Below the pieces are notes generated by a model. That model ran no database searches. It was not told the DNA's origin and saw only the letters and a program-made list of their open reading frames with translations. Source: an uncultured Candidatus Saccharibacteria bacterium (GTDB lineage: Bacteria > Patescibacteriota > Minisyncoccia > UBA6257 > JACOXY01). From it: DNA of 64,000 nt. A program made the position numbers and the translations under genes. Positions 6,901 to 62,989 of this stretch are shown piece after piece (positions within the stretch are counted from its first letter, which is position 1; every line of letters begins with the position of its first letter). Location of the stretch: NCBI GenBank assembly GCA_964357615.1, contig CAYHMC010000002.1, forward strand, positions 7,481 through 71,480, read 5' to 3'.

Positions 6901-7137
6901 TTTTTTGTTGCCGGAATTGTTGCGTCAGTGAAAAAAATTAATGACAAAAAGGGTCGTCCGATGTTATTTGTTCGAATGGAAGACTTAAATAACGAAGCCG
7001 AAGTAATTGTATTTTCAAGTGTATATGCAAAAAATCCTGCACTCTGGCAGGAAAACACCCCACTATTACTTCAGGCAAAAACTAACTGGAGAAATGGGGA
7101 AGCCAAGTTAATTTGTGACTCTGCCAACGAGCTTTAA
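3922..7137 (+). CDS. dnaE: DNA polymerase III alpha subunit
   Basis: 1071 aa from the ATG at 3922 (MKFVHLHNHSHYSLLDG is the PHP domain start). It has the PHP domain, the polymerase core (GPGRGSAAGSLVSYVLGITEVDPL) and an OB-fold tail. The long intact ORF argues for the standard genetic code. Confidence 0.9.
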   Translation: MKFVHLHNHSHYSLLDGLSKIDDMVARTKALGMDAIAITDHGNLYGSIEFYQKAKKAKIKPILGMEAYVAPGNRRDKGQGTGDPDSKINKNPKEEFGMRNRLPYYHLILLAENDAGWKNLIKLATKASLEGFYYKPRIDKELLREHHEGLIALSGCMTGEISRLLLADKFSAAENAVKEYVEIFGPNNFFLEIGHHPAIKELKKINEGLILLSKKTGVPLCATQDSHYLLKEDAPYHDILLAVQTGNKLTDEDRLTLKDDDFSLRSPEEMELLFKEHPEAIESTVKIAERCNVELELGKIRLPSFPLPDGVNPMSHLRELINLRIGKRFPGDIKKEVYERLEFELGVIDSMKYANYFLIVQDFINWAKERGIVVGPGRGSAAGSLVSYVLGITEVDPLKYDLYFERFLNPERIQMPDIDIDFTDLRRDEVLSYVKEKYGEDRVAQIITFGTMAARAAIRDSGRALGMPYSLCDQIAKMLPLNFKFKDGIENIPDLKALYLENPDAKQIINAARKLEGVARHASVHACGVVISKDPLIEIVPLQLSPQDQTSIITQFEMHAIEDLGLLKMDFLGLKNLTIMEETIRLVYDIHGQKINITEIPIDDLKTFEFLKQGETTGVFQFEGSGMRRYMKELKPTELEDLIALVALYRPGPMELIPTYIKRKNGEEKVSYIHPIMEKVLKNTYGVIVYQEQVMAMATELAGLTKGEGYLLIKAVGKKIKSLLDEQKEKFINGCLKNNITPSIAKTAWELIEPFARYGFNKAHSTCYALIGYQTAYLKANYPIEYMTALFDADKNDVERISFLTQEAGKIGIKVLPPDINTSSRDFMPDGSDIRFGLLAIKNVGGNIVDAIVNERARGGNFTDFSEFITRVEHKDLNKKSLESLARCGVFDSLNIDRNSIIENIEDILKFIAGYRRSSGNSNHSLFQNNLAKPKLELKQVAEALPTDKLKWEKELIGLYISDHPLNQFKDKIEKSRARPIKDALLIKNQNLKFFVAGIVASVKKINDKKGRPMLFVRMEDLNNEAEVIVFSSVYAKNPALWQENTPLLLQAKTNWRNGEAKLICDSANEL

Positions 7138-7476
7138 TAGTTGTGCGCTTAAATCAGCGCTTAAACCCAAGAAGTTTTGCTGTGAAAACATATTAATACC
7201 GATAAAGAAAATTGAGCCGAGTCCCGCAATGAGAAAAAAAGCTGTTATGAATCCAAATTTTATTCTTTTTAATCGATAATGAGCTCTATGATTGAAAAGA
7301 TGGTACCATTTTTTAATAAAGAAAAGTGACCCAATTATTAAATAAATTATAAATGCGCCAAGAAGTGTATTCGGCGACTTAAAACACCCAAACTGATTAA
7401 CCCCAGACGAACAACTACCTATAAAATTAACATAGAGCGAATATACAAAAAATGCTCCAACAATTAGTCTTATCAT
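7108..7476 (-). CDS. Hypothetical small membrane protein
   Basis: 122 aa with 3-4 hydrophobic helices and no recognisable family. It overlaps the dnaE 3' end by 30 nt, so the true start may be internal. Confidence 0.3.
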   Translation of the reverse strand: MIRLIVGAFFVYSLYVNFIGSCSSGVNQFGCFKSPNTLLGAFIIYLIIGSLFFIKKWYHLFNHRAHYRLKRIKFGFITAFFLIAGLGSIFFIGINMFSQQNFLGLSADLSAQLLKLVGRVTN

Positions 7477-7502
7477 GGTTATAATTTATTGTAACATAAG
7501 TG

Positions 7503-7532
7503 ATAAATAAAAATGCCGAGCTTTAGCTCGGT
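7503..7532 (-). terminator. Rho-independent terminator with stop codon in loop
   Basis: Minus strand reads ccgagc-TAAA-gctcgg followed by CATTTTTATTTATCA. The TAA stop of the 7523..7882 gene sits in the loop. Confidence 0.45.
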
Positions 7533-7882
7533 TTTCGAATTATGATTTCATTGTTGGTTAATAAAAAATTAGAAGTATTACCATCCGCACAAGATTGGGC
7601 TTCATGTTTTCTAAGTATTTCACTAACAAAAATCTGGTCTTCGGTTGGTAGACAAACCTTTAAGAGACGATAAGAGTCATATTTTCCAATTTTATATCTT
7701 TCTAATACATCTTCTCTTAGGGATGTCAGCTCAGCGTAGACATCTCCAGAGTCTCTTTCTGTGACAATTTTTGCAGTAATATATACGCTTAGAGCATTCA
7801 AAACATCAACTAAACTTCCCCAACCTACAAAAATTAATAATATTTGATTCTTGTGACTCAAAACAAAAACTGGTTTCCCCAT
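7523..7882 (-). CDS. Hypothetical protein
   Basis: 119 aa ORF with no recognisable motifs. The terminator just downstream supports expression. Confidence 0.35.
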   Translation of the reverse strand: MGKPVFVLSHKNQILLIFVGWGSLVDVLNALSVYITAKIVTERDSGDVYAELTSLREDVLERYKIGKYDSYRLLKVCLPTEDQIFVSEILRKHEAQSCADGNTSNFLLTNNEIIIRKPS

Positions 7883-7929
7883 ATATTCCCATTCACAAAA
7901 AATAGAGCTATACTGGTTATACTCTTACT

Positions 7930-9729
7930 ATGAACCCTAGTCAAGAAAATTTAGATAATATTCGCCATTCATTGGCTCATCTTTTAGCTGCTGCCGTGCT
8001 AAAAAAATTCCCAAAAGCAAAGCTAGGAATCGGCCCAACCATAGAAAATGGTTTTTATTATGATTTTGAATTACCCGCCAATAAGCTTGCAGACAAACAA
8101 GGTTTTACACCCGACGATTTAATAGAGTTTGAAAAGGAAATTCGCCATAATATAAAAGCTAGTCTTACATTCTCTGGTCAAAAACTAACCCCATTAAAAG
8201 CTAAAACGATTTTTAAAACTCAAAAATTTAAACTTGAACTTATTAAAGACCTTTCAAAAGAAAAGAAGCAACTCACCTTATATAAAACTGGGGAAATTTT
8301 TCAAGATCTTTGTCGCGGTGGACATGTTAGGAATACTAATGAAATAAACCCAGATGCTTTCAAGCTTACTCACACAGCGGGGGCTTACTGGAAAGGAGAC
8401 GAAAAAAAACCACAACTTCAGAGAATTTACGGAGTGGCATTTGAAAACAAGGAAGATTTAGAAAAATATTGGTGGCGTGAGGAAGAAGCTAAAAAAAGAG
8501 ATCATAGAAAACTAGGTAAAGAACTTGGACTATATACGATTATTGACGAGATAGGGTCTGGTCTCCCACTCTTTTATCCAAAAGGAGCCATTCTTCGTCG
8601 CCTAGTTGAAAATTTTATCACTGAACTACAAGAACAAAAAGGATACCTTCCGATTTGGATTCCTCACATAACAAAGGGTGAGCTTTATAAGATTTCCGGA
8701 CACTTAGATAAATATGATGCCATGTATCCTCCTGTAAAGCTAAAAAATGAGTCTGACTATTATCTAAAGCCGATGAACTGTCCTCATTTTATGATGTTAT
8801 ACAAAAGCCAACCACGCTCTTATCGCGACTTACCAATCCGATGGACATCAACTACAACAAATTATAGGCTGGAAAAAAGCGGAGAGTTAACCGGACTAAC
8901 AAGAGTGCGCTCAATTACACAAGATGATTGTCATGTCTTTTGTGAGCCAGATGATATTGAGAAAATTATAAATGAAATGCTAGATATGATTTCGGAAACC
9001 TATAAAGTATTTGGATTCCATGATTTCTCGGTTCGCATCTCGACTCACGACCCCAAGGATAAACAAAAATATATTGGGAATCCAAAAATATGGGGGGTAG
9101 CCGAAGAAATATTGACTCGCGTTATTAAAAAGCGCAACTGGAAACATGAAATTGGAATTGGCGAAGCGGCTTTTTATGGACCAAAGCTAGATTTTATATT
9201 TAAAGACGCCCTAGGGAGAGATTGGCAACTTTCCACCATTCAACTGGACATGAATCTTCCATCGCGCTTTGAGCTTCATTACACACCCAAAGGAGAAGGT
9301 GAAGAGAATAGTAAACCACTGCCACCAGCAGAACCAGTAGTCATTCATAGGGCCATTCTAGGATCAACCGAAAGATTTCTAGGAATTTTGATAGAACATT
9401 TTGCTGGTGCTTTTCCATTGTGGCTATCCCCAATTCAAGCTCGAGTTTTAGCTATTAGCGACAAACAAGCTGATTATGCAAATAAAATCTTTAGCGAACT
9501 AAAGCAATCTGGAATTAGAGCTGAAATTTCTCAGTCGAATGAAACTCTTGGGAAAAGAATCAGACAAGCACAACTCGACAAAATACCCTATCTTCTTATA
9601 GTTGGAGACAAGGAAAAAACCACCAATGAAGTATCGGTGCGACACCACAAACGCGGTGACGATGGGGTTCTGAAGCTAGATGAGTGTATTAGTAAAATGA
9701 AACTAGAAATTGATGAGAAGATAATATAA
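7930..9729 (+). CDS. thrS: Threonyl-tRNA synthetase (short form lacking N-terminal TGS domain)
   Basis: 599 aa. It starts directly in the editing/second-additional domain (IRHSLAHLLAAAV, the HxxxH zinc motif). It has the class II core (motif 2 region FRLEKSGELTGLTRVRSITQDDCHVF) and a C-terminal anticodon-binding domain. Confidence 0.9.
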   Translation: MNPSQENLDNIRHSLAHLLAAAVLKKFPKAKLGIGPTIENGFYYDFELPANKLADKQGFTPDDLIEFEKEIRHNIKASLTFSGQKLTPLKAKTIFKTQKFKLELIKDLSKEKKQLTLYKTGEIFQDLCRGGHVRNTNEINPDAFKLTHTAGAYWKGDEKKPQLQRIYGVAFENKEDLEKYWWREEEAKKRDHRKLGKELGLYTIIDEIGSGLPLFYPKGAILRRLVENFITELQEQKGYLPIWIPHITKGELYKISGHLDKYDAMYPPVKLKNESDYYLKPMNCPHFMMLYKSQPRSYRDLPIRWTSTTTNYRLEKSGELTGLTRVRSITQDDCHVFCEPDDIEKIINEMLDMISETYKVFGFHDFSVRISTHDPKDKQKYIGNPKIWGVAEEILTRVIKKRNWKHEIGIGEAAFYGPKLDFIFKDALGRDWQLSTIQLDMNLPSRFELHYTPKGEGEENSKPLPPAEPVVIHRAILGSTERFLGILIEHFAGAFPLWLSPIQARVLAISDKQADYANKIFSELKQSGIRAEISQSNETLGKRIRQAQLDKIPYLLIVGDKEKTTNEVSVRHHKRGDDGVLKLDECISKMKLEIDEKII

Positions 9730-9774
9730 TGAATCAAATCGAGTGCCTCAAAGACACTCGATTTTTAAATTAAA

Positions 9775-10704
9775 ATGGAAAAGCAAAAAATAATTGTAAT
9801 TCTTGGTCAAACTGCAAGTGGAAAATCTGACTTGGCTGTTCAAATAGCCAAGAAATATAACGGCGAAATAATATCTGCTGATTCAAGACAGGTTTACAAA
9901 GGGCTCGATATTGGAACTGGGAAAATAACAAAGAAAGAAATGGTGGGCATAAAACATTATTGCTTAAGTTATGCCTCGCCAAAGCGCATCCATACGGTCT
10001 CACAATTTATAAAAATTGCAAAAAAAGCCTTGAAAGAAATTTCTACTAAAAATAAATTGCCGATACTTTGCGGTGGAACGGGACTTTATATTGATATATT
10101 ACTAAATGAAATTAATTTACCAGAAGTAAAACCTAATTTAAAATTAAGAAGGAAGCTTGAAAAATGTGATACGATAACTCTTTTTAATAAACTCAAAATA
10201 CTAGATAAACAAAGAGCTGATACTTTACTAAAAAATGGTGGGAACAAGAACAAACGGAGATTAATTAGGGCGCTCGAAATAATTTACGACACAAACAAGC
10301 CTGTGACTTATTTTAAAAATGGAATTCAAAACAGCAATCATAATAAAATAAATTATGCACCATTATATATTGGGATAAATATTTCCGAAAACAAACTTAA
10401 AGATAGAATACACAAAAGACTCATTCAGAGACTTAGGCGTGGATTAATTAAAGAAGTAAATGAGCTACAAGCACAGAAAATTTTAAGTTGGGAAAAACTC
10501 CAAAGCCTAGGATTAGAATATAAATATGTAGCGCTTTACTTAAGTGGAATGATAAATAAAAATGAACTCGCTACGCAATTAGAAAAAGAAATTTGGCGTT
10601 ATGCAAAAAGACAAATGACTTGGTTTAAAAGAAATAAATCAATTAATTGGGTGGGTAATAAAAACGAGGCTTATCGCCTCGTCGCACAATTTTTAAAAAA
10701 GTAA
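9775..10704 (+). CDS. miaA: tRNA dimethylallyltransferase
   Basis: The P-loop GQTASGKS and SADSRQVYKGLDIGTGK are the MiaA signature. Confidence 0.85.
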   Translation: MEKQKIIVILGQTASGKSDLAVQIAKKYNGEIISADSRQVYKGLDIGTGKITKKEMVGIKHYCLSYASPKRIHTVSQFIKIAKKALKEISTKNKLPILCGGTGLYIDILLNEINLPEVKPNLKLRRKLEKCDTITLFNKLKILDKQRADTLLKNGGNKNKRRLIRALEIIYDTNKPVTYFKNGIQNSNHNKINYAPLYIGINISENKLKDRIHKRLIQRLRRGLIKEVNELQAQKILSWEKLQSLGLEYKYVALYLSGMINKNELATQLEKEIWRYAKRQMTWFKRNKSINWVGNKNEAYRLVAQFLKK

Positions 10705-10732
10705 AATTAAGAGTATTTAATTTGAGATAATT

Positions 10733-11216
10733 TTATTGCAACCAAATGGGTGGCAAAACAATCTTGCCGTTATTAAAATCTTTAGGCAAAGCAACTCTAT
10801 CGCTTAATGCAATATTATCTTCCCATACCACTTCGATTACCGAGACATCTCTAAATTTAAGGTCGGCATACTTGGCCGCATCACTACGAAATTTACTCAC
10901 TAATAATTCTATTCGTCTCGATCTCTCGCTAATCTCGTTAACTAAAACTGGTTTTCTGTCTTCATATACATAGAATAAATAAAGTTTGCTTGCATCTATA
11001 TGATTGACACCAGTCCATCCTTCACCGCATTCCGAAAGCGGAGAATTTCTTAACATTTTTCTCAAAAGCGGGTAAAGAAAATTAATTTGATGTTCTGGAC
11101 CAAAAAATAATAAGTGGCCATCTTTCCTCGCTTGAAACTGGAGAAACTAAAGTTATTGGACTTTCTGGAAAAACAGCATGCAGGGCGATATATTCGATGT
11201 CGTTAAGTCCTAAAAA
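10733..11216 (-). pseudogene. Apparent frameshifted gene (two overlapping reading frames joined at an A6/T6 run near 11103-11108)
   Basis: Frame B (ORF track 10733..11065, TTG start) stays open upstream to a stop at 11149-11147. A second minus-strand frame runs from a TTG at 11216 to a stop at 11084-11082, reading LVELRKFLGLNDIEYIALHAVFPESPITLVSPVSSEERWPLIIFW. The two frames overlap across a homopolymer run (plus 11103-11108 AAAAAA). A one-base indel there would give a single ~165 aa protein of unrecognised family. Confidence 0.35.
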
Positions 11217-13022: not shown

Positions 13023-14519
13023 CTAAGAAAGTATTTTGGCGTCCTTAGGCGATTTAGCGCTAAATCCCTTTTCATTAAAAATTAATACTTTACGGTCGCC
13101 AGAAATATTTGTTTCTAGACAAACAGTGCCTTTCCACAAAAAATGAATAAGTTCCATTGTTTTTTTAGCATAATCAATTAATAAATCTCTACCATCATGG
13201 TCATGCGAAAGATAAAGCATACGACTACCACCCACATTCCCATCTACAACTTTAATAACTGGAATTCCATTTGTACCAATGTTTTTAAGAAGAGTATCTT
13301 TGATTTTCTTAGCACCACTTACACCTGCGACTTCAGAAACAATCATCTTGTCGTCTTTTGCGCGCCACTCAAATAAATCAAGCTCACGAATAAGGTTTTC
13401 GTTTAAAAATCTTCGGAGAAATGAGATGTCGCGATCAGCACTACGAACTTCAAATATTTTTTGTCGTCCAGTTAGTTTTCCTAAATCTCCTGGAGCGCCG
13501 TTACAATCGTATTCAATTTGATGGTCCTCACAAATCTTACCAGTCATTGCCTCGTCATATCTATGACAAACATCTGTCCAGACTGCAAGTCCAACATGAT
13601 ATGGGTTTAATCCGTTTTTTATTGGTCTAACAACCTGATTGTGCCTTACCATAAACTCCATCATTTGCCCTTCTGGTAATTTTCCTTCATTTGCAAGTGC
13701 AACTAAAATTTCTCTGTGCCAATAACTTGCCCAACCTTCATTCATTATCTTGGTATCAATTTGAGGAATAAAATATTGCGCTTCTTCGTGGACTATCTGC
13801 AATAACTTTTTCTGCCAATCTTTTAAGAATGGATTGTGGTTAGCAATAAAAAGTAAAATATCTTCATCTGGAACTGGAGGAACTCTTTGAAGATCTGGTT
13901 CGATAAATTCTTCCCGTTTGTGAAGCCTGAAAAATGGGTCGTTTTTGGGTTGTGCAATATCAAACAATCTATCCCGCTCTTCTTTTATAGAGAGCTTTTT
14001 TATACCCAAATTCCTTCTACACTGAAGGGATAAAGCATGAGCGGCATCAAGAGTTTGCTCAACTGCCTCTGCGCCAATTGATGGATCTTCGCAAAATTTT
14101 CTCACAAGATTTGCATGCGCCTTAAACTTTGAAAGAGTATTATGAGCTTCAGTGCTCTGAAATGTGAAATTATTTTTAAAGAAATCGTTGTGTCCATATA
14201 CATGCGCAATAGTCAAAATCTGAAGACATAACGAATTATCTCTCATTAAATATGCAATCGCTGGGTCTGAATTGATGACCATTTCGTATGGAAGTCCGGA
14301 AATGCCATAATCGTACATCGTTTTAGTTCTTTCGTACGCTTTGCCGTATGACCAATGTGGATAATGGCTTGGAATGCCAGAATACGCCATAAAACCCAGC
14401 ATTTCGCTTTGGTCACAAATATGGAATTCTTGTTCATAACAATCAAGTCCAAATTCTTTAGCCTTAGAAAATGCATTAGAATCCCAATATTCCAAATCAT
14501 CTACATTCCAATCGGTCAT
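13023..14519 (-). CDS. spoVR: SpoVR-like protein (YcgB family)
   Basis: 498 aa. It is the third gene of the conserved prkA-yhbH-spoVR triad. Its size and position fit the SpoVR/YcgB family. It overlaps the upstream gene by 4 nt, suggesting translational coupling. Confidence 0.75.
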   Translation of the reverse strand: MTDWNVDDLEYWDSNAFSKAKEFGLDCYEQEFHICDQSEMLGFMAYSGIPSHYPHWSYGKAYERTKTMYDYGISGLPYEMVINSDPAIAYLMRDNSLCLQILTIAHVYGHNDFFKNNFTFQSTEAHNTLSKFKAHANLVRKFCEDPSIGAEAVEQTLDAAHALSLQCRRNLGIKKLSIKEERDRLFDIAQPKNDPFFRLHKREEFIEPDLQRVPPVPDEDILLFIANHNPFLKDWQKKLLQIVHEEAQYFIPQIDTKIMNEGWASYWHREILVALANEGKLPEGQMMEFMVRHNQVVRPIKNGLNPYHVGLAVWTDVCHRYDEAMTGKICEDHQIEYDCNGAPGDLGKLTGRQKIFEVRSADRDISFLRRFLNENLIRELDLFEWRAKDDKMIVSEVAGVSGAKKIKDTLLKNIGTNGIPVIKVVDGNVGGSRMLYLSHDHDGRDLLIDYAKKTMELIHFLWKGTVCLETNISGDRKVLIFNEKGFSAKSPKDAKILS

Positions 14520-15805
14520 TTTGTTACCTCCTTAGTGAGCAACTGCCTAAAAGATTCCCAAACATCTTCTTTTTTAACTATAGATACTGCCTCAAAGTTA
14601 TCTGCTTTTAACTTCTTAAAAATTTCAAACATAGATGATTCATAGCTTCTATTGGTTGGCTTAATTTCTCCATAACCAAAAAGGTTAGCTACACTACAAA
14701 GCTTTTCCGCGGCCTTAAGCGTTGCCTCATTATCAGATTCATGATTATCACCATCTGAACAATGAAATGCGTAGATATTCCAAAGTGATGGATGATAGCG
14801 GTCGGCAATAATTTCTAAAGCTTTTACATAAGCCGACGAAATAAATGTTCCACCTGACTCACCTTTCGTAAAGAATTCTTGTTCAGTTACTTCTTTTGCT
14901 TCTGTATGATGTGCAATAAAAACAATTTCTACTTTTTGATACTTTGTTTTGATAAATTGAAAAAGTAAAAAGAAAAATGATCTCGCTAAATATTTCTTCA
15001 TTGTATCCATTGACCCAGAAGTATCCATCATACATATAACTACTGCATTTGATTCTTCTTTCGTCTTAGGCACAAAGTGCCTATAAACAAGGTCATCAGT
15101 GTGAAATGGGAATCTCTTTTTCCCAGATATTAAATCACTATGAGTTTCATAACGCTTTTCAAGCGCCTTTATTGATTCCCTAGCTTTTTTAGCATGCTCA
15201 TCACTTCCCGTTGCGATTGCAAGACCAATTTCCTCAACAATCTTTCTTTCATTTCCATGAATTGAGTCTGTCGTAAGTCTTCTCTTTATGCGAGCTATCG
15301 CTGATTTCTTTTTATCTAGACGAGCCCTAATTCCCTTTTTGCGATTTCCTTTATGTTTTCTAGTGCGCTGTGATTCAATCATGCGCAATGCTTTTCTCTC
15401 CATTTCGGGTAATTCAAGATCATCAAACATTATCCCTATTAATTCCTCAAGCGTAATTTCAGTTTCATAATATTCTGCTCCCGGCTCATCACCAGCCTCA
15501 CCTTCCCCACTTTTTCCTTCTTTAGGTATTTTTCCAACAACATCGCCAGGCGAAGCTGAACCCTTGCCATCGCCCTGCGCAACACCGCCACTGTTATCAC
15601 CATAAGAAAATCTATATTCTTTTATGCCACGAACAGGAACTTTAATTATTTTATCCGAGCTTCTTCCAATTATTGATTCTTCAGAAATTATATCGGCAAT
15701 ATTTTTTTGAATCGACTCTCGAATTTTCTGTCTATGTCGCGTCCTATCTCCTGCGCTACGATCACTTTTTTGAGCTATTGGTGTTTCACTATGAAAAATA
15801 GCCAT
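14516..15805 (-). CDS. yhbH: DUF444/UPF0229 protein (YhbH/YeaH family)
   Basis: 429 aa. It has an acidic/Gly-rich low-complexity middle region and a C-terminal vWA-like region (ICMMDTSGSM is a MIDAS-like DxSxS). It is the middle gene of the prkA triad. Confidence 0.75.
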   Translation of the reverse strand: MAIFHSETPIAQKSDRSAGDRTRHRQKIRESIQKNIADIISEESIIGRSSDKIIKVPVRGIKEYRFSYGDNSGGVAQGDGKGSASPGDVVGKIPKEGKSGEGEAGDEPGAEYYETEITLEELIGIMFDDLELPEMERKALRMIESQRTRKHKGNRKKGIRARLDKKKSAIARIKRRLTTDSIHGNERKIVEEIGLAIATGSDEHAKKARESIKALEKRYETHSDLISGKKRFPFHTDDLVYRHFVPKTKEESNAVVICMMDTSGSMDTMKKYLARSFFFLLFQFIKTKYQKVEIVFIAHHTEAKEVTEQEFFTKGESGGTFISSAYVKALEIIADRYHPSLWNIYAFHCSDGDNHESDNEATLKAAEKLCSVANLFGYGEIKPTNRSYESSMFEIFKKLKADNFEAVSIVKKEDVWESFRQLLTKEVTK

Positions 15806-15904
15806 TTTTTGTTATCCAGTTTTAAACAACTGTTTACACCGTAACAAAATTATATGGCGTTAGTCAAAGGTGAATAAATCTTAAAATAATTCGTTGCTTT
15901 TTTG

Positions 15905-15937
15905 AATAAAATAAAAAACCGAGATTTAAACCTCGGT
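15905..15937 (-). terminator. Rho-independent terminator downstream of prkA
   Basis: Minus strand reads accgag-GTTTAAAT-ctcggt followed by TTTTTTATTTTATT. It lies 28 nt after the prkA stop. Confidence 0.45.
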
Positions 15938-15964
15938 ATATTTCAAATTAAATGGAAGATTGAA

Positions 15965-17896
15965 TTAATCCTTCCAAAGATTATTAGCAGCATATTTCAA
16001 GACTACATCAACGCATGTCTTACAATAACCATTCTCAATCATATTTGTAACCATAGTATCGTATTTTTCTGTTTGCTCTTCATCTCTAGTTCGCGCTTTT
16101 GTGATAATGCGACAAATATCACGAACTGATGTCATAAGCTTCTTCTCTATAGCCTCCCTAAGTGGCTCATAGCTCTTAAATGAGAGCTTATCGCCTCTTC
16201 GGGTTACACTCCAAAGATAAGCAATGACCTCTTGCCGAAATCCATCAGCAGCAGAACCAATAATCGCAATCTGTTCTTCGATTGATTTTAGGAGGCCTTC
16301 ATCTGGCTGGAGTTCTTCTTTGGTGTTCTTGTCCTTAACTTTAGTCTTATTAACATAAGCTTCGGCGTGATCAAGATAATTTTGAAAAAGCGAATCGGCT
16401 TGTTCCTGATATGCAAAAACGAAAGATTTTGTAATTTCTTTTTCTAAAATATCTAGATATTCTTTATGCACTATATTCTGTAAGAGTTCTAAATATACTT
16501 TTCTTGTATCGTCCGGCAAATCGGCTTCTTTTACCATAGCAAGAAGAGCTTCGCGAACATTAATAGGATTTATGCACGCTCCATCAATATTGTCTGACAA
16601 TGCATTGTCCAGCGCCTTCATAATAAAGCGAGTTGAAATTCCATTCATGCCTTCGCGCTTGGTATCTTCTTTAAGTTCACGCACATCAATTTTTTTAGTT
16701 TTTCCTTTTTCGACAACTTCTTCGCCGTTATAAAGCTTCAATTTTGTAAGGATGTCGCACTTATTACTTGCCTCAAGACGAGATAGAATAGCGAACATAG
16801 ATGCAATCTCTAAGGTATGCGGAGCAACATGTGCCCGAAAACTAGATTTCTTTATAACCTTTTGATAAATCTTTACCTCTTCTGATAATCGAAGATTATA
16901 AGGCACCTTAACGACCACAACGCGGTCAAGCAAAGCTTCATTTGTGTGATCTGCTTTAAATTTTTGCCATTCGGCTTCATTTGAATGTGCGATAATTGCA
17001 GCATCAACATAAATCATACCGTGCCTACCGGGCGCAGGAATAATTTTCTCTTGCGTAGCAGTAATCATTGCATGAAGATATTCAGTTTCGTTTTTAAATA
17101 CCTCAATAAATTCCACCATACCTCGATTGCCGACATTTAACGCGCCGTTTAGATCAAGAACTCTTGGATCGCCTTCTGGATAAGTATCCAGCTTTGAAAT
17201 ATCTTCCGAGCCAATCAAAACAGAAGTGTCTTGATTATTAGGATCAACTGGTGGGACAATTCCGATACCAATACGATTACGCTTAGAAAAATTTAATTTA
17301 ACAACGGGCATTTCTTCATACCTACCCCCATGAACATCTTTTAACTTAAAACGACATACGGGACAAAGATCACCTTCAATAGTGACATTCAGATATTCAC
17401 AAAATTGTTTCTGTAAATGCCTTGGAACAAGATGAAGTGGCTCTTCGTGCATTGGGCAACCTTCAATTGCATAGAACGCATTTGATTCAAGACCAGACTT
17501 TATCTTTTCTGCTAAAGAACTTTTGCCAGAACCAACAGGTCCCATAAAATAAAGAACTTGCCGAGATTCCTCGCCTCTTAAAGAAGCTGCATGGAAATAT
17601 CTCACTATCTGACTAATTGGTTTTTCCATACCAAAAAACTCATCACGGAAAAAATTAAAAATTTTTATTTCTTCATCTTTGAATTGCTTTTTAAGACCAC
17701 GGTCACCGCGTTCATTACCGCTTACTGAGCCATCTTTAACAATGATGTCGTAAATTCTGGCATGCGAAAGACTAACAATACTTGGATTTTCCTTAACAAC
17801 TTCCAAATATTGTAAAAAAGTTCCCTTCCAAGACTTTCGTTCTTTATTTTTATGATCTTCACGAATAAGTGACTCCAGATGACCAGATTCACTCAT
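15965..17896 (-). CDS. prkA: PrkA-family serine protein kinase (AAA+ N-domain)
   Basis: 643 aa. The N-terminal Walker A is YFMGPVGSGKSSLAEKIK, and the length and architecture are typical of PrkA/YeaG. It is the first gene of the triad. Confidence 0.85.
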   Translation of the reverse strand: MSESGHLESLIREDHKNKERKSWKGTFLQYLEVVKENPSIVSLSHARIYDIIVKDGSVSGNERGDRGLKKQFKDEEIKIFNFFRDEFFGMEKPISQIVRYFHAASLRGEESRQVLYFMGPVGSGKSSLAEKIKSGLESNAFYAIEGCPMHEEPLHLVPRHLQKQFCEYLNVTIEGDLCPVCRFKLKDVHGGRYEEMPVVKLNFSKRNRIGIGIVPPVDPNNQDTSVLIGSEDISKLDTYPEGDPRVLDLNGALNVGNRGMVEFIEVFKNETEYLHAMITATQEKIIPAPGRHGMIYVDAAIIAHSNEAEWQKFKADHTNEALLDRVVVVKVPYNLRLSEEVKIYQKVIKKSSFRAHVAPHTLEIASMFAILSRLEASNKCDILTKLKLYNGEEVVEKGKTKKIDVRELKEDTKREGMNGISTRFIMKALDNALSDNIDGACINPINVREALLAMVKEADLPDDTRKVYLELLQNIVHKEYLDILEKEITKSFVFAYQEQADSLFQNYLDHAEAYVNKTKVKDKNTKEELQPDEGLLKSIEEQIAIIGSAADGFRQEVIAYLWSVTRRGDKLSFKSYEPLREAIEKKLMTSVRDICRIITKARTRDEEQTEKYDTMVTNMIENGYCKTCVDVVLKYAANNLWKD

Positions 17897-18001: not shown

Positions 18002-20317
18002 CTACAAAGATGGATAACCTGCAAAATCATCTACATAAGTATCTATTGTTCTTGTTGGGTCAGTATCTAAAACACCAAACATCCATCTATTTTCTTGACT
18101 ATTGTACCATGAAGGAGTGCACGTTGACGGAGCTGAATATGATGTTTGAGCTATAATAGGTGTACCTGATTGCTCTAAATCTTTCAAAGTTCCCGCAATA
18201 TCAAGCCCCATATCATTACGCTGAACAATTTGTGCGCTTAATCTATACCAGCGACCTGCATAAAATCCACCAGAAATTGGAGAGAAGTTAAATAAATTAT
18301 TTGAAGAACTATCACAGCCAGCCGGTTGACCATTCATATCAAGGTTATCTGTATACTTTTGAAATTGAATTACTATCCTTCCAGCATTGCCGGCATCGTG
18401 AAATATATCAGCTCCAATCCTACCTAAGACATCAACAGTATATGGTTCTCCAGTAATTGGTCTTCTGTAAGCCGGAAAAAGTGCTAAATGATTCCAACCT
18501 GCAAAACTAGAACTTGGTATCATAAAAGAAACTTCTGCCGTTCTTAAGTTGGGATATGGAGTATTTTTATACCACTCCATAGCCACACCATTATTTGTTG
18601 AGCTTGTAACAATTAACGCAGACTTTCCATTGCTAAGAGATGATCCATTACAAACCGGGTGCACTGATGGCTCTACTGTTGCGTCAAACCATTTGCCCCA
18701 ACGCCTTGTCCATAAACCGCCGGTTGTTGAAAGATTTGAGTCGCACACTGAACTTAACTGTGGCGTTACCTGCACAATATTTAGAGCTGAGCTACTACCC
18801 TCTGGAACCCATCCAACAATACCAGCGCCAATAAATTCTACCCTCCACCACTTCATATCTCCTGGTGTTATTGGACCCTCTCTAACTATGCCCTGCGTAT
18901 TTGCACCAACAGTTCCAACAATGGTCTGACCACCAGGAATGGATTTCACGCTAAGACTTGGAACTCCAACACGAACATATTGACCAATAGCTACTGGTGA
19001 AATATTGGATAAATAATTTTCAATAGAATAACCATTAATTCCATTAATTGCGGCACTCCAATTTAATATTCTCCAGTTACTACCTTCATTAGGTATACTC
19101 ACGCTATTCACAGTTCCTAAATTATCTGAAGCTACAACACCAACTATGGGACTAGATAGTGACGCACTTGCACGTATATTTAAAATAGGGACATTTGGTC
19201 TAATACGATCTCCAACTAAAATAGAAATTTGCGGTGTAGGTGTTGGCAAAGAACCAACAGTAAAATATTTTGGTCCGGCAAAAGTCATTCTTTCGCCATT
19301 CAAATCGAAAACTTCAGCAAAAAAAGTATGAGCTCCCTTTACGGTAGATGTTGTTATTGGAACAGAAAAACTATAAGGATAGGTCGCATCATCACTAATT
19401 GGCACTACTGTATCTCCACCAGAAAATTGAACACGACTAACTTGATTAGTTCCGGTAATTGTTATACCCCCTATTAATGTTTGGCCAGGATAAATAGTGC
19501 TTGAATTTGTAGTGAGAGTATAAGTAATTGGAGTTGGGATCGGTGTTGGAGATGGAGATAAAATTATCAATGTAAAAATTGTAGACCTAGAAATAGTGCT
19601 ATCGTTATTTTTTGTATTAACAGCAATATTATAGGTTCCGGGAGATGCCGATGCAGATATGTGTAAACCCATAATAATCACACAACTAGGCTGTGGCACA
19701 CAGTAGATTAATCTATTGCCTATAACTGTATCTGCTGTTACGCCACTTGGTAGACCACTAACAGAATTAACATAGACTTGCTCAGAGCCAGACCCATAAG
19801 ATGCAATGGAATTTACATTGATACTAACAGACGCGTTACTTGGTCGTGCCATTGTAATTGAATTTGGAGTTATTGTGGCTGTGTATGTATATACATCAGA
19901 AGCTAAATTAGAATAAGGCGAATAGGAAATAGAAGCTCCAGAACCAGAGTAGGCACGCATCCTATAGCAATAAGCATAAGTATTACTTGGAATATCATTT
20001 GAGCGTGAGCGAGTTGATTTACTTGTTATACTTTCAACCACTACAAATCCTGAAGCACAAGTATTGTCTGATGTTCTTTCTATTTTGAATCCCGAGTGTG
20101 CAGTTCCTGAATATTGCCAGTCAAGCCTTATGCGAGAAGAAGAGGTTCTTCTTGCTGTAAGATTTATGGGAGCAGATAGAGTAGTCTGAGGGACAATTTG
20201 GGTAAGAAGATTATTTGATACCCCGTTCACACCAAGATCTATAAAAATTATAAAAAAGGCGACACCAAAAGTAACCATTATGAATCTTGTAAATCCTATA
20301 TGCGTTTTTTTAAACAT
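18002..20317 (-). CDS. Large cell-surface protein: signal anchor, FN3-like domain, Ser/Thr-rich region, SH3b-like and LamG-like C-terminal domains
   Basis: 771 aa. N-terminal TM (FIMVTFGVAFFIIFIDL). FN3-like segment (APINLTARRTSSSRIRLDWQYSGTAHSGFKIERTSD). Long S/T/P-rich linker (PSPTPIPTPITYTLTT). SH3b-like segment (GQYVRVGVPSLSVKSIPGG...MKWWRVEFIGAGIVGWVPEGS). The C-terminus is concanavalin-like. Confidence 0.5.
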   Translation of the reverse strand: MFKKTHIGFTRFIMVTFGVAFFIIFIDLGVNGVSNNLLTQIVPQTTLSAPINLTARRTSSSRIRLDWQYSGTAHSGFKIERTSDNTCASGFVVVESITSKSTRSRSNDIPSNTYAYCYRMRAYSGSGASISYSPYSNLASDVYTYTATITPNSITMARPSNASVSINVNSIASYGSGSEQVYVNSVSGLPSGVTADTVIGNRLIYCVPQPSCVIIMGLHISASASPGTYNIAVNTKNNDSTISRSTIFTLIILSPSPTPIPTPITYTLTTNSSTIYPGQTLIGGITITGTNQVSRVQFSGGDTVVPISDDATYPYSFSVPITTSTVKGAHTFFAEVFDLNGERMTFAGPKYFTVGSLPTPTPQISILVGDRIRPNVPILNIRASASLSSPIVGVVASDNLGTVNSVSIPNEGSNWRILNWSAAINGINGYSIENYLSNISPVAIGQYVRVGVPSLSVKSIPGGQTIVGTVGANTQGIVREGPITPGDMKWWRVEFIGAGIVGWVPEGSSSALNIVQVTPQLSSVCDSNLSTTGGLWTRRWGKWFDATVEPSVHPVCNGSSLSNGKSALIVTSSTNNGVAMEWYKNTPYPNLRTAEVSFMIPSSSFAGWNHLALFPAYRRPITGEPYTVDVLGRIGADIFHDAGNAGRIVIQFQKYTDNLDMNGQPAGCDSSSNNLFNFSPISGGFYAGRWYRLSAQIVQRNDMGLDIAGTLKDLEQSGTPIIAQTSYSAPSTCTPSWYNSQENRWMFGVLDTDPTRTIDTYVDDFAGYPSL

Positions 20318-32091: not shown

Positions 32092-32430
32092 ATGAAAAAA
32101 TTAGTTCGAAAAACGACTCTTTATATTTGCGAGGTATGTAAAACTGAATACACCAAGAAAAAAGATGCTTTAAAATGTGAGGCAAAATTATTAGAAAGAA
32201 AAGTTTTTCACGCTGGTGATATAGTTAGAAACAAAAATAAACGAACTTGCTCCCAGAAAATGAAAAAGTATATATTAAAAGGTAAAGTTGTTAGAGTACT
32301 TGGACCAATATCAATATCGGATAATAGAAATCATATTTTTCAATATGAAATTAAATACATATGTCCAGCGTGCAATCAAGAAAAACAAGCCCTTTATAAC
32401 GCCTCAGAATTAAAATTAATTCCCCGATGA
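32092..32430 (+). CDS. Small zinc-ribbon protein (hypothetical)
   Basis: 112 aa. It has CEVC...C near the N-terminus and CPAC near the C-terminus. A terminator hairpin overlaps the stop. Confidence 0.4.
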   Translation: MKKLVRKTTLYICEVCKTEYTKKKDALKCEAKLLERKVFHAGDIVRNKNKRTCSQKMKKYILKGKVVRVLGPISISDNRNHIFQYEIKYICPACNQEKQALYNASELKLIPR

Positions 32431-32448
32431 TGTTCTCATCGGTTTTTT
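32424..32448 (+). terminator. Rho-independent terminator (stop codon in stem)
   Basis: ccgatga-TGTTC-tcatcgg followed by TTTTTT. The TGA stop at 32428-32430 lies within the 5' stem. Confidence 0.55.
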
Positions 32449-32550: not shown

Positions 32551-33459
32551 ATGAGAATTGAATCACTTGTTAAAAATAAAGCCAAAAAATATACTAATCA
32601 CGATCTACTTCGTGCGGGATATATTCCTCTTGATAAGTCATGGATAATTCGCATGGGTGTCTTAGACATCATAAATGGATATGATGATATAAAAAAATTT
32701 CTAAGCGAACAAGATATGCTTAGCGACGATCTTTTGGCTTTAAAACGAGCATATGAAAGCTGGGATACAAATCGACCAATAAATGTCGGTGAATCTGGAA
32801 CCTTATTTCGCTTTCTTCAATTTGCTTCATGGAAATTAAAACTAAATAAAAAATTTGTTTTGTGTGGAACACTCAAAAAAAGAAATGTTATAAGAAATAA
32901 AAACATTATAAATCTTTCTTTGGATAAACTACTAAAATTAGATAGTGGAACTTCGCAATGGGCATCAGCTTCTGTTTTGCTTGGTAATAAGAAAAAAATT
33001 AAGAATAAACCCTATAAATTAAAGGCTACATATGAAGCTCTAGGGCACTGGGAAAAACAAAGAAATAAACATATCGCCTGGAAACCAAAGTATGACGAAA
33101 CCATACTTAGACAAACTCAAACTTTTCTAAAATTAATTAAGGGGCGAAAAGTGAAATTTAAACCACAACAAGCCGAGGATTATTGCTTTGCCAGAGTTTT
33201 TGATTTTATTTCAAAAAAAGAAGGTGAGAGAAAATGGCCAAGTTTACGCAATCACGAAAGCGACAGAATAACTGAAATGGAAAAAATGATGGGAAACGCG
33301 AAGCTTAATAAAGTTATCAATTCTCGCGATCACAGAGCGGTACAAGCTATAGTTATGTGGAGTAAAATTAATAAAGTTTCTGTAAAAATTAAACATCCTG
33401 ATGCCGTGAATAAAAGCTGGCCACAATTTTGGAACTTTATTAAATCAGTTTCAATTTAA
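32551..33459 (+). CDS. Miniature EPSP-synthase-like (enolpyruvyl-transferase fold) protein
   Basis: 302 aa. Motifs align to AroA landmarks. LPLDKSWIIRMGVL matches LPGSKSxSNRALLL. LSDDLLALKRA matches DSDDVxxMLxAL. VGESGTLFRFL matches GNAGTAMRPL. The C-terminal SRDHRAVQAIVMWS...HPDAVNKSWPQFWNFI matches NDHRMAMCFSLVA...DPKCTAKTFPDYFEQL. It is about 130 aa shorter than canonical AroA. Confidence 0.45.
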   Translation: MRIESLVKNKAKKYTNHDLLRAGYIPLDKSWIIRMGVLDIINGYDDIKKFLSEQDMLSDDLLALKRAYESWDTNRPINVGESGTLFRFLQFASWKLKLNKKFVLCGTLKKRNVIRNKNIINLSLDKLLKLDSGTSQWASASVLLGNKKKIKNKPYKLKATYEALGHWEKQRNKHIAWKPKYDETILRQTQTFLKLIKGRKVKFKPQQAEDYCFARVFDFISKKEGERKWPSLRNHESDRITEMEKMMGNAKLNKVINSRDHRAVQAIVMWSKINKVSVKIKHPDAVNKSWPQFWNFIKSVSI

Positions 33460-37677: not shown

Positions 37678-39036
37678 ATGTCTTTAGTCAAGAAAACACT
37701 CATCCTTTTTGGTGATTTTATCTTATTTTATGCGTCCTTAACGCTAACGCTTTTTTTACGCTATAATACCCCCCTTACAGCAATTTTACCTGGCGGAGAA
37801 GGAGATTTTATTCAATCATTATATGTTCACTTAATACCTTTTTTACCTCTGCTCTTTGTTTGGGTAATTATTTTCTATTTATTCGACCTATATAGCCCAA
37901 AAACTTTTCGCAATCGTCAGGTGCAGTTCAAGGCTCTTGTAGTTGCTTCTAGTATTAGTTTTTTAACTTCCATAATCGTATTTTACTTATTTCAATCTTT
38001 TTTCCTACTTACACCAAAAACAAATCTAGTTTTATTTGCGTTTATATTTTCAGTTTCTGATTATTTGTTTAGATTGGGAATTGGGAAAATATTAAAAACA
38101 AAAGAATGGCAAACCAAAACTTTTTTTATTGGAAATTCAGAAAGAATTTTCAAAATTTATAATTACCTTAAAGAAAATCCACAGATGGGGTTTAGCTTGT
38201 CAGATTCAAAAAAAGATATTCCAAATCAAAACGACGAAGAACTCCTCAAAGAGCTAAAAAACAAGGGAATCGATTTAGTTGTAATAGATGAAGAAATTTT
38301 AGAAAGTAAAAAAGATGTATTTTTAGGTATACTTTATGAACTCTCCGATCAATCTATCTCCATAACCAATTCATCAGATTTTTATGAAATTATTTTTCAA
38401 AAAGTACCACTACGAGAACTAAAAGATGATTGGTTCGTCGAACACATTGGGGATAGCAGAAAATTCTATGAGGCCGGCAAAGAAGTAATGGATTTTATAT
38501 TAGGCACCATACTTAGTTTTTTGCTTTTACCACTTAGCTTTATTATTGCACTACTTATTAAAGGAACATCACGGGGCCCAATTATATACGAACAAAAACG
38601 AATGGGTAAAAACAACAGACCATTCACTTTATACAAATTTCGCTCAATGAAAAATAATATGGAAGGCAATCTTTGGACAGATAAAAATGATGGACGACTT
38701 ACAAAACTAGGGAAAATTTTAAGATTTACACATCTAGACGAAATACCCCAATTAATTAACATTCTAAAGGGCAATATTTCTTTCTTGGGTCCACGACCTG
38801 AGCGCGTTGAACTCGCCCTTAAATATAGTTCATTGCCTTACTATAAAATGCGCCACATTGTTAAACCAGGATTAACGGGATGGGCGCAAATAAATTTCAA
38901 ACCTTCAGCTTCGCTTGAAGAGGCATATGAAAAATTATGCTATGATATTTACTATATTAAAAACCGGTCCTATTGGTTAGATTTCCTAATTGTTCTAAAA
39001 ACATTAAAATATTTCTTTACCAGTCAAAGTAAATAA
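37678..39036 (+). CDS. Polyprenyl-phosphate glycosyl-1-phosphate transferase (WbaP/WcaJ-like initiating sugar transferase)
   Basis: 452 aa. It has N-terminal TM helices and a C-terminal bacterial sugar-transferase domain (RGPIIYEQKRMGKNNRPFTLYKFRSM...DEIPQLINILKGNISFLGPRP). Confidence 0.85.
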   Translation: MSLVKKTLILFGDFILFYASLTLTLFLRYNTPLTAILPGGEGDFIQSLYVHLIPFLPLLFVWVIIFYLFDLYSPKTFRNRQVQFKALVVASSISFLTSIIVFYLFQSFFLLTPKTNLVLFAFIFSVSDYLFRLGIGKILKTKEWQTKTFFIGNSERIFKIYNYLKENPQMGFSLSDSKKDIPNQNDEELLKELKNKGIDLVVIDEEILESKKDVFLGILYELSDQSISITNSSDFYEIIFQKVPLRELKDDWFVEHIGDSRKFYEAGKEVMDFILGTILSFLLLPLSFIIALLIKGTSRGPIIYEQKRMGKNNRPFTLYKFRSMKNNMEGNLWTDKNDGRLTKLGKILRFTHLDEIPQLINILKGNISFLGPRPERVELALKYSSLPYYKMRHIVKPGLTGWAQINFKPSASLEEAYEKLCYDIYYIKNRSYWLDFLIVLKTLKYFFTSQSK

Positions 39037-61732: not shown

Positions 61733-62989
61733 TTAACGAGGTTTTTTTAATCTACAAAAACAATCAAGCATCATAATTATATCAATTGGAAAGCGATAGC
61801 GCGGGTCGGCATTTGCAATAACAAAAGGCAAGAAATAAAGAAAAATTACTAAAAACATCAGGAGGTTGTCTCTATCTAAAAAATTTTTGCGAGTTCTAAA
61901 TACGATAAAAAGCCAAACAAAGATTGGTGTCGCCATTAATATTTTAACAATTCTTTTTAGCCCTTCTGTAGTTATCCATGAAAAATCGGGAACTTGGTGG
62001 TATCCTGGCCTAAACAAGGTAAATATTTTTATTCCGGTTAACTTTATGTATTCAATTGGATGTGCTTTTATAAAATCAAATGCGAGCTGTTTGTAAGTTT
62101 CGGGTGGAAAAATTAGTCGCTCTTCAAATTTATTAATTGCCGTATATCCCCTAGCACCTAGAGCATCTCTCAAAGAATTTTCACCGCTAAAATCTGAAAG
62201 TAAGTACTTGCTAGAATATTCATTAGAACCTGCAAATAGATTATAATAGCCGTGATTTGGAAAATAAAAAGGTTTTTGCTTAACTGCAGTATTAATAATT
62301 ACAAAAACAAACAATGAGATAAATAAAAATAATAAAGATTGATTAAAATAGTTTCTTGATATGCTTTCACTTTCTTTATTTTTTATTCTGTTATTTTTAT
62401 TAAAAATTAAAACTCCATATTGAAATATTTTTGGAAAATAAACAATTAGCAATACAGGCAATACAAGCAATATGGTATTCATTCGAACTACAAAAAGCAG
62501 ACCGGATATTACACCCAAAACCAAAATGCCAAGAAAATTTCTTTCTCGTTCCACATACAGACAAGCTACAAGCAAGCCAAGTAATAGCAAAACTGTAATA
62601 TTGCCATCATGAACTCTCCATATATTAAGAAAAAGAACTGGGTGAATGGCAGTAATTAAAATACCAAAAAATAATTTATGACCAGTAACGCCTCTAAATG
62701 TCAAAAGCAAAAGAGCACACAATAAAATAAATACGTAGATTAGAGACTGACAAACTGGAATTAAATTTATGCCACCATGCGCGATGCATAACCCCAAAAA
62801 ACCAGAATATCCAATTGGCATAAAGTTAGATGTTATGGCTCCCACTTCTGCAAATTCATTGGCGTCATTATACAATAATGCCACAAAGAAAGAACTATCT
62901 ATGTCTTGCTTTAAAGACGCAAGGACAAAAACTACAACCAGAATTACACCAATTAGCATCAACACCTTTGGAATCGTAAGTTGGCTCAT
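61733..62989 (-). CDS. Polytopic membrane protein: GT-C-fold glycosyltransferase (ArnT/PMT-like) or Wzy-like polymerase
   Basis: 418 aa with about 10 TM helices. There is an acidic motif in the first extracytoplasmic loop (YNDANEFAEVG). It sits next to the polyprenol-P sugar synthase and GT9 genes. Confidence 0.5.
   Translation of the reverse strand: MSQLTIPKVLMLIGVILVVVFVLASLKQDIDSSFFVALLYNDANEFAEVGAITSNFMPIGYSGFLGLCIAHGGINLIPVCQSLIYVFILLCALLLLTFRGVTGHKLFFGILITAIHPVLFLNIWRVHDGNITVLLLLGLLVACLYVERERNFLGILVLGVISGLLFVVRMNTILLVLPVLLIVYFPKIFQYGVLIFNKNNRIKNKESESISRNYFNQSLLFLFISLFVFVIINTAVKQKPFYFPNHGYYNLFAGSNEYSSKYLLSDFSGENSLRDALGARGYTAINKFEERLIFPPETYKQLAFDFIKAHPIEYIKLTGIKIFTLFRPGYHQVPDFSWITTEGLKRIVKILMATPIFVWLFIVFRTRKNFLDRDNLLMFLVIFLYFLPFVIANADPRYRFPIDIIMMLDCFCRLKKPR

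Follow-up and report, generated by a model that had tools for sequence, protein, structure and literature searches.

Can a protein of 302 amino acids (aa) carry out the reaction of 5-enolpyruvylshikimate-3-phosphate (EPSP) synthase, for which Escherichia coli uses an enzyme of 427 aa? This question is raised by an open reading frame (ORF) at positions 32551–33459, forward strand, of a 64-kb stretch of DNA (hereafter the window) from contig CAYHMC010000002.1 of an uncultured Candidatus Saccharibacteria bacterium. The ORF begins at its sole in-frame start, an ATG at 32551, and runs uninterrupted through 302 codons to the stop; the predicted product has a mass of 35.4 kDa and a pI of 10.1. An original prediction, made from the letters alone, recognized motif blocks of EPSP synthase (AroA; 3-phosphoshikimate 1-carboxyvinyltransferase) in this ORF and judged the protein to be about 130 aa shorter than canonical enzymes; all of the blocks are in place, and the difference from E. 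coli AroA is 125 aa. The evidence presented below, drawn from sequence comparison, structure prediction and genomic context, indicates that the gene probably encodes a genuine, functional, miniaturized EPSP synthase, referred to here as mini-EPSPS. No description of this family was found in the searchable literature.

Homology to AroA

Homologs of mini-EPSPS form more than 835 clusters at 90% identity, with 369 representatives at 50% identity. Almost all are 270–320 aa long, and they are annotated as “hypothetical protein” in metagenome-assembled genomes (MAGs) of Patescibacteria, Paceibacterota and Minisyncoccia. A phmmer search of the PDB with the single window sequence gave no match, and hhalign against the single E. 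coli AroA sequence recovered the C-terminal unit only. The Pfam model PF00275, proposed as a check in the original prediction, did match the window protein above its gathering score (26.6 versus 22.8 bits, E 3.2e-6), over aa 243–295 only, and was matched by 44 of 47 family members. Since single-sequence searches fell short, a diverse AroA profile was built from E. coli aroA and 16 plasmid or chromid aroA genes (17 sequences, 28–71% identity). An alignment of 47 family members, with a mean column identity of 61%, matched this profile in hhalign at 98.4% (E 5e-14). An alignment of 179 members, with identities down to 27%, which underlies the conservation figures given below, matched at 99.6% (E 5.5e-24) over 288 columns, with query residues 3–302 collinear with AroA 1–425. 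In regional comparisons, the C-terminal unit (232–302) gave an E of 1.4e-13 and the N-terminal part (23–145) was collinear with AroA 16–180 at P ~1e-3, while the middle (172–235) gave no detectable AroA match alone. Comparison with E. coli MurA detected no similarity (E 0.5). The homology extends over the full length of the protein and is of the AroA type, not the MurA type.

Structure prediction pointed loosely in the same direction. The AlphaFold2 model of the window protein is a compact single chain of high predicted confidence (pLDDT 93.8, pTM 0.90), in which DSSP finds helices nearly throughout and beta-structure only in the form of isolated bridges. The best 25 Foldseek matches in the PDB were all EPSP synthases, at 12–14% identity and with probabilities of 0.9–1.0 for the best. 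TM-scores, normalized on the query, were 0.5–0.57 against closed, liganded forms of AroA and 0.38 against an open form, placing the predicted two-lobed fold nearest to the closed structures.

Approximately 140 AroA positions are deleted in mini-EPSPS, in the ranges 58–84, 128–148, 181–193, 211–219, 285–323 and 357–374; these are mostly beta-hairpins, and the helices are retained. The original prediction took a portion of one lobe to be absent. The deletions are in fact spread almost evenly, 69 residues from one lobe and 71 from the other, indicating an enzyme trimmed all round. The range 285–323 takes out the helix that bears the catalytic residue D313.

Active-site residues

Residue equivalences between E. 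coli AroA and the window protein were taken from two alignments, a smaller one and the 179-sequence family alignment, against the AroA profile. All blocks lie on the forward strand. Nearest the N-terminus, IPLDKSWIIR (aa 25–34; 32623–32652) aligns with AroA LPGSKSVSNR and places K29, S30 and R34 opposite K22, S23 and R27, with conservation of 93%, 85% and 89%, respectively. LSDDLLALK (aa 57–65; 32719–32745) corresponds to DSDDVRHML, with D60 in place of D49 (conserved in 176 of 179 sequences). VGESGTLFRFL (aa 79–89; 32785–32817) aligns with LGNAGTAMRPL, the loop that binds glyphosate and phosphoenolpyruvate (PEP), so that E81, G83, T84 and R87 match N94, G96, T97 and R100; E81 is conserved at 92%, R87 at 91% and G83 at 71% (Ala in 20%). 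Canonical Clostridia-type AroA likewise has glutamate in place of N94 (“ESGSTLRFL”), and the “xDxxESG(S/T)xxRFL” loop of mini-EPSPS is shared with the AroA proteins of Acetoanaerobium and Subdoligranulum. Further along, GTLKKRNV (32866–32889) contains R111, the equivalent of R124 (176 of 179), and GTSQWASA (32947–32970) contains T134-S135-Q136, the equivalents of S169-S170-Q171 (93%; 78%, with Thr in 16%; and 96%). In the C-terminal unit, NHESDR (33250–33267) aligns with VKETDR and supplies H235, E236 and R239 for K340, E341 and R344 (92%, 96% and 98%); SRDHRAVQA (aa 258–266; 33322–33348) aligns with NDHRMAM, its D260-H261-R262 matching D384-H385-R386 (97–100%); and VNKSWPQFW (33406–33432) aligns with TAKTFPDYF, with K288 at the position of K411 (177 of 179). 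The motif block HPDAVNKSWPQFWNFI occupies aa 282–297.

Two further blocks stand at the N-termini of helices. YDETILRQ (33091–33114) is specific to the family; its D182 falls near AroA E240–D242 in the alignment and precedes a helix at 183–196 in the model. QAEDYCFA (33169–33192) carries E209-D210, conserved at 92–93%, with D210 aligned to AroA D273, and C212, conserved at 78%; the largest deletion, AroA 285–323, falls straight after this helix. A catalytic cysteine of the MurA type (Cys115) was considered at C212 and rejected on account of its incomplete conservation.

Only D182 and R262 are invariant in all 179 sequences. At least 97% conservation is seen for D60, R111, D182, R239, D260-H261-R262 and K288, and 90–97% for K29, E81, S82, R87, T134, Q136, Q188, E209, D210, H235 and E236. 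In E. coli AroA, K22 is a catalytic residue that contacts PEP and shikimate-3-phosphate (S3P), R27 binds the S3P carboxylate, R124 and K411 bind the PEP phosphate, S169–Q171 form part of the S3P phosphate and PEP site, E341 is a catalytic acid/base, and R344 and R386 bind the PEP carboxylate. The equivalents of the PEP-site and catalytic residues (K29, D60, R87, R111, E236, R239, R262 and K288) are all aligned and 91–100% conserved. Judged from the alignment, the AroA PEP-site and catalytic residues are thus the most constrained part of mini-EPSPS, and the pattern is one of family-wide purifying constraint. Of the catalytic residues singled out in the original prediction, equivalents were found for K22, R27, D49, R124, E341, R344, R386 and K411, and the one exception is D313, which is deleted.

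Linkage to shikimate genes in cellular genomes

A scan of GTDB species representatives gave 110 relatives of mini-EPSPS and a metagenome scan gave 243; 80 loci were retrieved from each. No conserved operon surrounds mini-EPSPS in the first 80 GTDB loci. The neighbors there are housekeeping genes (MetRS/IleRS, ParA/B, FtsW, L21, PheRS) common only within lineages. With E. coli AroB, AroC, AroD and AroE as queries, tblastn detected just one AroB-like gene, at a distance of 9 kb in locus L076. Within one lineage, a recurrent neighbor is an IleRS-like class I aminoacyl-tRNA synthetase of the candidate phyla radiation (CPR) with an inserted His_Phos_1 (phosphoglycerate-mutase-like) domain (L001, 1–1979; L197, 8762–12223).

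The original prediction suggested a look for other aro genes. None was found in the 64-kb window, but other loci of the family adjoin aroC or aroB. On five independent CPR-type contigs, L117, L123 (the same as L198), L128, L132 and L143 (the same as L197), aroC directly adjoins mini-EPSPS and is co-directional with it, and aroK is also present on L128. The aroB gene adjoins mini-EPSPS in L158/L160 and lies 6–9 kb distant in L199 and L076, and adjacency to aroC or aroB is seen at six independent cellular loci in all. In L197, which is bacterial by its IF3, bL20, bL35 and SmpB genes, aroC is followed by mini-EPSPS after a gap of 17 nt, and in L198 mini-EPSPS is followed by aroC after a gap of 20 nt. 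Adjacency in both orders speaks for selection for linkage and against inherited synteny. The five aroC adjacencies compare with ~0.4 expected among the 130 usable of 148 non-redundant loci (Poisson P ~9e-5, from a simple random-placement model that assumes independent loci). The aro-linked members are 46–72% identical to one another and come from four or more regions of the family tree, with the L128 protein sister to the subclade of the window protein. No canonical AroA was found in ~2 Mb of mini-EPSPS flanks.

In L198, two tandem PurP-like genes (DUF1246/DUF1297; 220–2450) lie just upstream of the mini-EPSPS–aroC pair. The contig also encodes an EF-P of bacterial type, and its mini-EPSPS shares 63% identity with the window protein; the PurP family is usually linked with archaeal purine biosynthesis.

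Shikimate operons in phages

A scan of IMG/VR identified three contigs with mini-EPSPS. In contig L111, the gene (7989–8795) is the second of a co-directional operon that begins with a fusion of chorismate mutase and 3-deoxy-D-arabino-heptulosonate-7-phosphate (DAHP) synthase (6955–8007) and continues with chorismate synthase (8782–9771; PF01264, E 1e-98) and a fusion of shikimate kinase and 3-dehydroquinate (DHQ) synthase (9765–11177). The same order (DAHP synthase, mini-EPSPS, aroC, aroK-aroB), with overlapping gene ends, is found in L112, L113 and L115; the chorismate mutase fusion is carried by L111, and L115 adds shikimate dehydrogenase. The regions concerned are 6955–15783 in L111, 1–9866 in L113, 5380–11723 in L115 and 9–5444 in L112. 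The contigs are of myovirus type and stem from real phages: genes for a contractile tail sheath (PF04984), a tube of the gp19 type and a baseplate protein of T4 come directly after the shikimate operon, with both sheath and tube on L111 itself. Misbinned cellular DNA was rejected as an explanation for L111, L113 and L115, as these contigs encode tail sheath, tube and baseplate. The phage AroC proteins are short (329–343 aa), and their closest non-phage relatives, at ~50% identity, are of the Marinimicrobia/Fidelibacterota type. Since canonical aroA is absent from the phage operons, mini-EPSPS is the only candidate there for the EPSP synthase step. Its place in the aroA slot of these operons, together with its position beside aroC and aroB in cellular genomes, makes S3P the most likely substrate.

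The single genes aroQ, aroE and aroK are known as auxiliary metabolic genes in viromes (PMC12180181). The operons described here differ from these in combining DAHP synthase, with or without chorismate mutase, aroE, the miniature aroA, aroC and aroK-aroB, and no report of a near-complete phage shikimate operon beside contractile-tail genes was found in the searchable literature. A third “viral” contig, L110 (IMGVR_UViG_3300009545_000201, 5 kb), encodes a bacterial-type mini-EPSPS with a 45-aa N-terminal extension (539–1507); neither aro genes nor phage hallmark genes were detected on it.

Distribution across domains

The mini-EPSPS family crosses domains, occurring in CPR bacteria, DPANN archaea and phages. 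A DPANN label (Woese-, Pace-, Nano- or Micrarchaeota) is carried by 26 of the 80 retrieved GTDB loci. The archaeal assignment was checked from neighboring genes for two of these: in L058, from a single-cell genome of Nanoarchaeota, mini-EPSPS is flanked by genes for a 20S proteasome subunit, FttA/aCPSF1 and a ProRS of archaeal type, and L061 has Kae1 and PAC2. Bacterial and archaeal proteins are 44–59% identical, and a neighbor-joining tree separates a mostly archaeal clade from a mostly bacterial one, with a few exceptions. The linked aroC gene shows a similar spread. The AroC of the bacterial locus L197 (4827–5924) is 74% identical to that of L200 (4910–6007), which is archaeal by its S27e, eIF2-alpha, Nop10 and RIO kinase genes and where AroC is followed by DHQ synthase; this suggests that aroC, too, was recently transferred between CPR bacteria and DPANN archaea. 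Only ~13 clusters are close to the CPR-type AroC that L197 encodes; beyond them, matches fall to ~50% identity, with archaeal AroCs.

In one Paceibacterota lineage, mini-EPSPS is fused to a very divergent pyridoxal-phosphate (PLP) domain resembling serine hydroxymethyltransferase (SHMT), with a total length of ~705 aa (L063, 9980–12112; L068, 2072–4186; L071, 2401–4527; also P0122). The fused domain retains a “SLIPSEN” motif and a “STHKT” lysine motif, and no stand-alone homolog of it was seen in the flanks of other mini-EPSPS loci.

Proposed mechanism and alternatives

We propose that mini-EPSPS would bind S3P and PEP in the cleft between its two lobes and that, as in canonical AroA, the enolpyruvyl group would pass to the 5-OH of S3P with release of phosphate. 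The ~70 residues lost per lobe would come mostly from beta-hairpins at the surface, within the six beta-alpha-beta-alpha-beta-beta units, leaving the buried helices, whose N-termini would carry the ligand-binding residues. The function of the deleted D313 may be taken over by a family-specific acid; conservation and placement at helix N-termini make D182, or E209/D210, candidate substitutes in acid/base catalysis. We infer both catalysis by mini-EPSPS and its use for a shikimate pathway by the genome of the window.

Several observations weigh against this assignment. In both alignments D313 falls inside the 39-residue deletion (AroA 285–323) and has no equivalent. The S3P site is altered as well: K340 is replaced by histidine (H235), and the positions of S197, Y200 and N336 are variable, with Y200 aligned to Y155 in the smaller alignment only and Y155 placed at P199 in the 179-sequence alignment. 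The Foldseek match is loose, with TM-scores no higher than 0.57 and no E below 0.08. The NCBIfam aroA equivalog model TIGR01356 gave 30.2 bits, over aa 255–300 only, where its cut-off is 287; this shortfall explains why annotation pipelines label the protein “hypothetical” and, with the loss of D313, indicates that mini-EPSPS is not an ordinary member of AroA. The genomic context adds to these points. Besides the lack of aro genes in the window, where comparison with L128 revealed no remnant of aroK or aroC and the two share only generic histidine kinase/response regulator similarity, more than 90% of the 148 loci have no aro gene within 10 kb of mini-EPSPS, and none of the long mini-EPSPS contigs (137–681 kb) is among the best 120 CPR-type AroC relatives. 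The original prediction noted that organisms of this type usually lack the shikimate pathway, which the literature broadly bears out: complete shikimate modules are reported as rare in CPR MAGs, for which a table row of amino-acid modules, the shikimate pathway among them, gives 4% (PMC13597930). Against this stand the aroC and aroB genes beside mini-EPSPS on several CPR-type contigs.

The same gaps are what would be expected if the protein performed the same chemistry in another physiological role, as an orphan in most CPR and DPANN carriers and possibly in this genome, a reading that we consider rather unlikely. Such an enzyme might transfer enolpyruvate to another phosphorylated hydroxy-acid or nucleotide, use S3P derived from a host, or run in reverse (EPSP + Pi to S3P + PEP). 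The contrast between more than 835 mini-EPSPS clusters and ~13 close CPR-type AroC clusters, the reported rarity of complete shikimate modules in CPR MAGs, the changes at D313, K340, S197 and Y200, the SHMT-like fusion in one lineage and the precedent of NikO, which transfers enolpyruvate onto the nucleotide UMP (PMC6801904), all favor it. On the other hand, orphan and aroC-linked members are 57–63% identical, have the same active-site residues and interleave in the tree, so that nothing in the sequence shows a switch of substrate; the ligands of the S3P carboxylate and phosphate are retained; and gene order in CPR and DPANN genomes is generally scrambled, so missing adjacency tells little. 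Many carriers may nevertheless hold mini-EPSPS as an orphan. With similarly low probability, it would act on a host-derived intermediate in a pathway split between host and symbiont, or on a different phospho-metabolite, and its beta-stripped fold lacking D313 would represent a new minimal solution to enolpyruvyl transfer. Loss of the D313 segment and of roughly a third of the fold could also mean that the protein is a catalytically dead descendant of AroA, either a pseudo-enzyme or a ligand-binding protein, for instance a sensor of PEP or phosphate; in E. coli AroA, the D313A mutation leaves the tetrahedral intermediate trapped (title of PDB 1Q36). This is very improbable given that the most invariant residues are precisely the catalytic and PEP-site residues, including the equivalents of E341 and K22, that invariant acids (D182 in 179 of 179; E209 and D210) stand at helix N-termini, and that in the phage operons no other protein is a candidate for the step that follows shikimate kinase and precedes chorismate synthase. 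The original prediction left the choice between a pseudo-enzyme, a binding protein and an enzyme with a different substrate; with aroC and aroB beside the gene and with the phage operons, these options are less likely than a plain EPSP synthase. Finally, a Pfam match limited to the C-terminal 50 residues and the empty phmmer search might suggest a truncated or frameshifted remnant of aroA, which the original prediction also entertained, or a chance match of motifs. We give this almost no credence in view of hundreds of orthologs of the same length in three kinds of genomes, their mean column identity, the confident single-domain model, the full-length alignment to AroA, and flanks that leave no room for lost parts, as a hairpin lies on one side and a convergent gene on the other.

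A functional, miniaturized EPSP synthase thus accounts best for the observations, and its relation to known systems can be considered on that basis. Similarities to AroA (PF00275, TIGR01356; Clostridia-type, class II-like) are collinearity over the whole length, most of the PEP- and S3P-site residues and the operon slot between shikimate kinase and chorismate synthase; the differences are a length of 270–320 aa in place of 400–450 and beta-sheets reduced largely to isolated bridges in the model. A published survey tree of EPSP synthase classes I–IV used only sequences longer than 350 aa (bioRxiv 10.1101/2020.05.27.118265); mini-EPSPS would be left out by this limit, and the family falls outside those classes. 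MurA and NikO, a UMP 3'-enolpyruvyl transferase, belong to the same superfamily and likewise transfer an enolpyruvyl group from PEP. Unlike MurA, mini-EPSPS has no conserved catalytic cysteine, and in addition to the lack of profile similarity no MurA appeared among the Foldseek matches. Replacement of MurA was rejected as a role because a canonical MurA coexists with mini-EPSPS on L063. RtcA, the RNA 3'-terminal phosphate cyclase, is ~340 aa long, and the folding unit of EPSP synthase and MurA recurs in its large domain. Although mini-EPSPS is of similar size, no RtcA was found in Pfam, NCBIfam, PDB sequence or Foldseek searches, and conservation falls on residues of the AroA PEP/S3P site. 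An RtcA-like role and a tRNA- or RNA-related role were both dropped when neither profile nor fold support emerged and the aro linkages came to light.

If active, mini-EPSPS would be far smaller than any other EPSP synthase and would serve as a natural experiment showing that roughly a third of the fold, the D313 segment included, is dispensable; this would be useful for enzyme minimization and for understanding the target of glyphosate. As annotation misses the family, the completeness of the shikimate pathway is likely to be systematically under-called at the aroA step in CPR and DPANN genomes and in phages. The family, apparently together with aroC, crosses the boundary between bacteria and archaea among episymbionts, and the phage-encoded operons provide a concrete case of inter-domain transfer and a possible vehicle for it. 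Should the remainder of the pathway truly be absent from most carriers, the orphan enzyme would hint at a metabolic exchange of unknown kind between symbiont and host.

Surroundings of the gene in the window

The window is bacterial and low in GC (30–38%), and its housekeeping genes (gyrB, dnaE, thrS, miaA, nusG, L11, gatB) are typical of CPR/Patescibacteria. A gene 100% identical to the window mini-EPSPS is carried by contig L116 from a Hainich groundwater metagenome. Upstream of the coding sequence, outside the enzyme itself, a terminator-like hairpin followed by a T-run (32424–32442, forward strand) ends a 112-aa ORF, and a convergent gene begins 5 nt past the mini-EPSPS stop; these boundaries suggest that mini-EPSPS forms its own transcription unit. 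The 112-aa ORF directly upstream (32092–32430, forward strand) contains two CxxC pairs and is zinc-ribbon-like; it has no family match and is not kept beside mini-EPSPS family members elsewhere.

Elsewhere in the window, a trio of genes on the reverse strand (13023–17896) encodes PrkA (AAA_PrkA and PrkA domains), a DUF444 protein (YeaH-like) and SpoVR, here in a small-genome CPR bacterium; these genes are usually discussed for starvation or sporulation responses. Two long ORFs on the reverse strand, at 18002–20317 (771 aa) and 61733–62989 (418 aa), have no Pfam match at E <= 1e-4. Lastly, positions 37678–63935 contain a large surface-polysaccharide cluster encoding an initiating sugar transferase, a Wzx-type flippase, at least eight glycosyltransferases, a DegT aminotransferase, two dehydratase/epimerases, UDP-glucose dehydrogenase, a carbamoyltransferase, FkbM and C-methyltransferases, and a family-9 (heptosyl-type) transferase.

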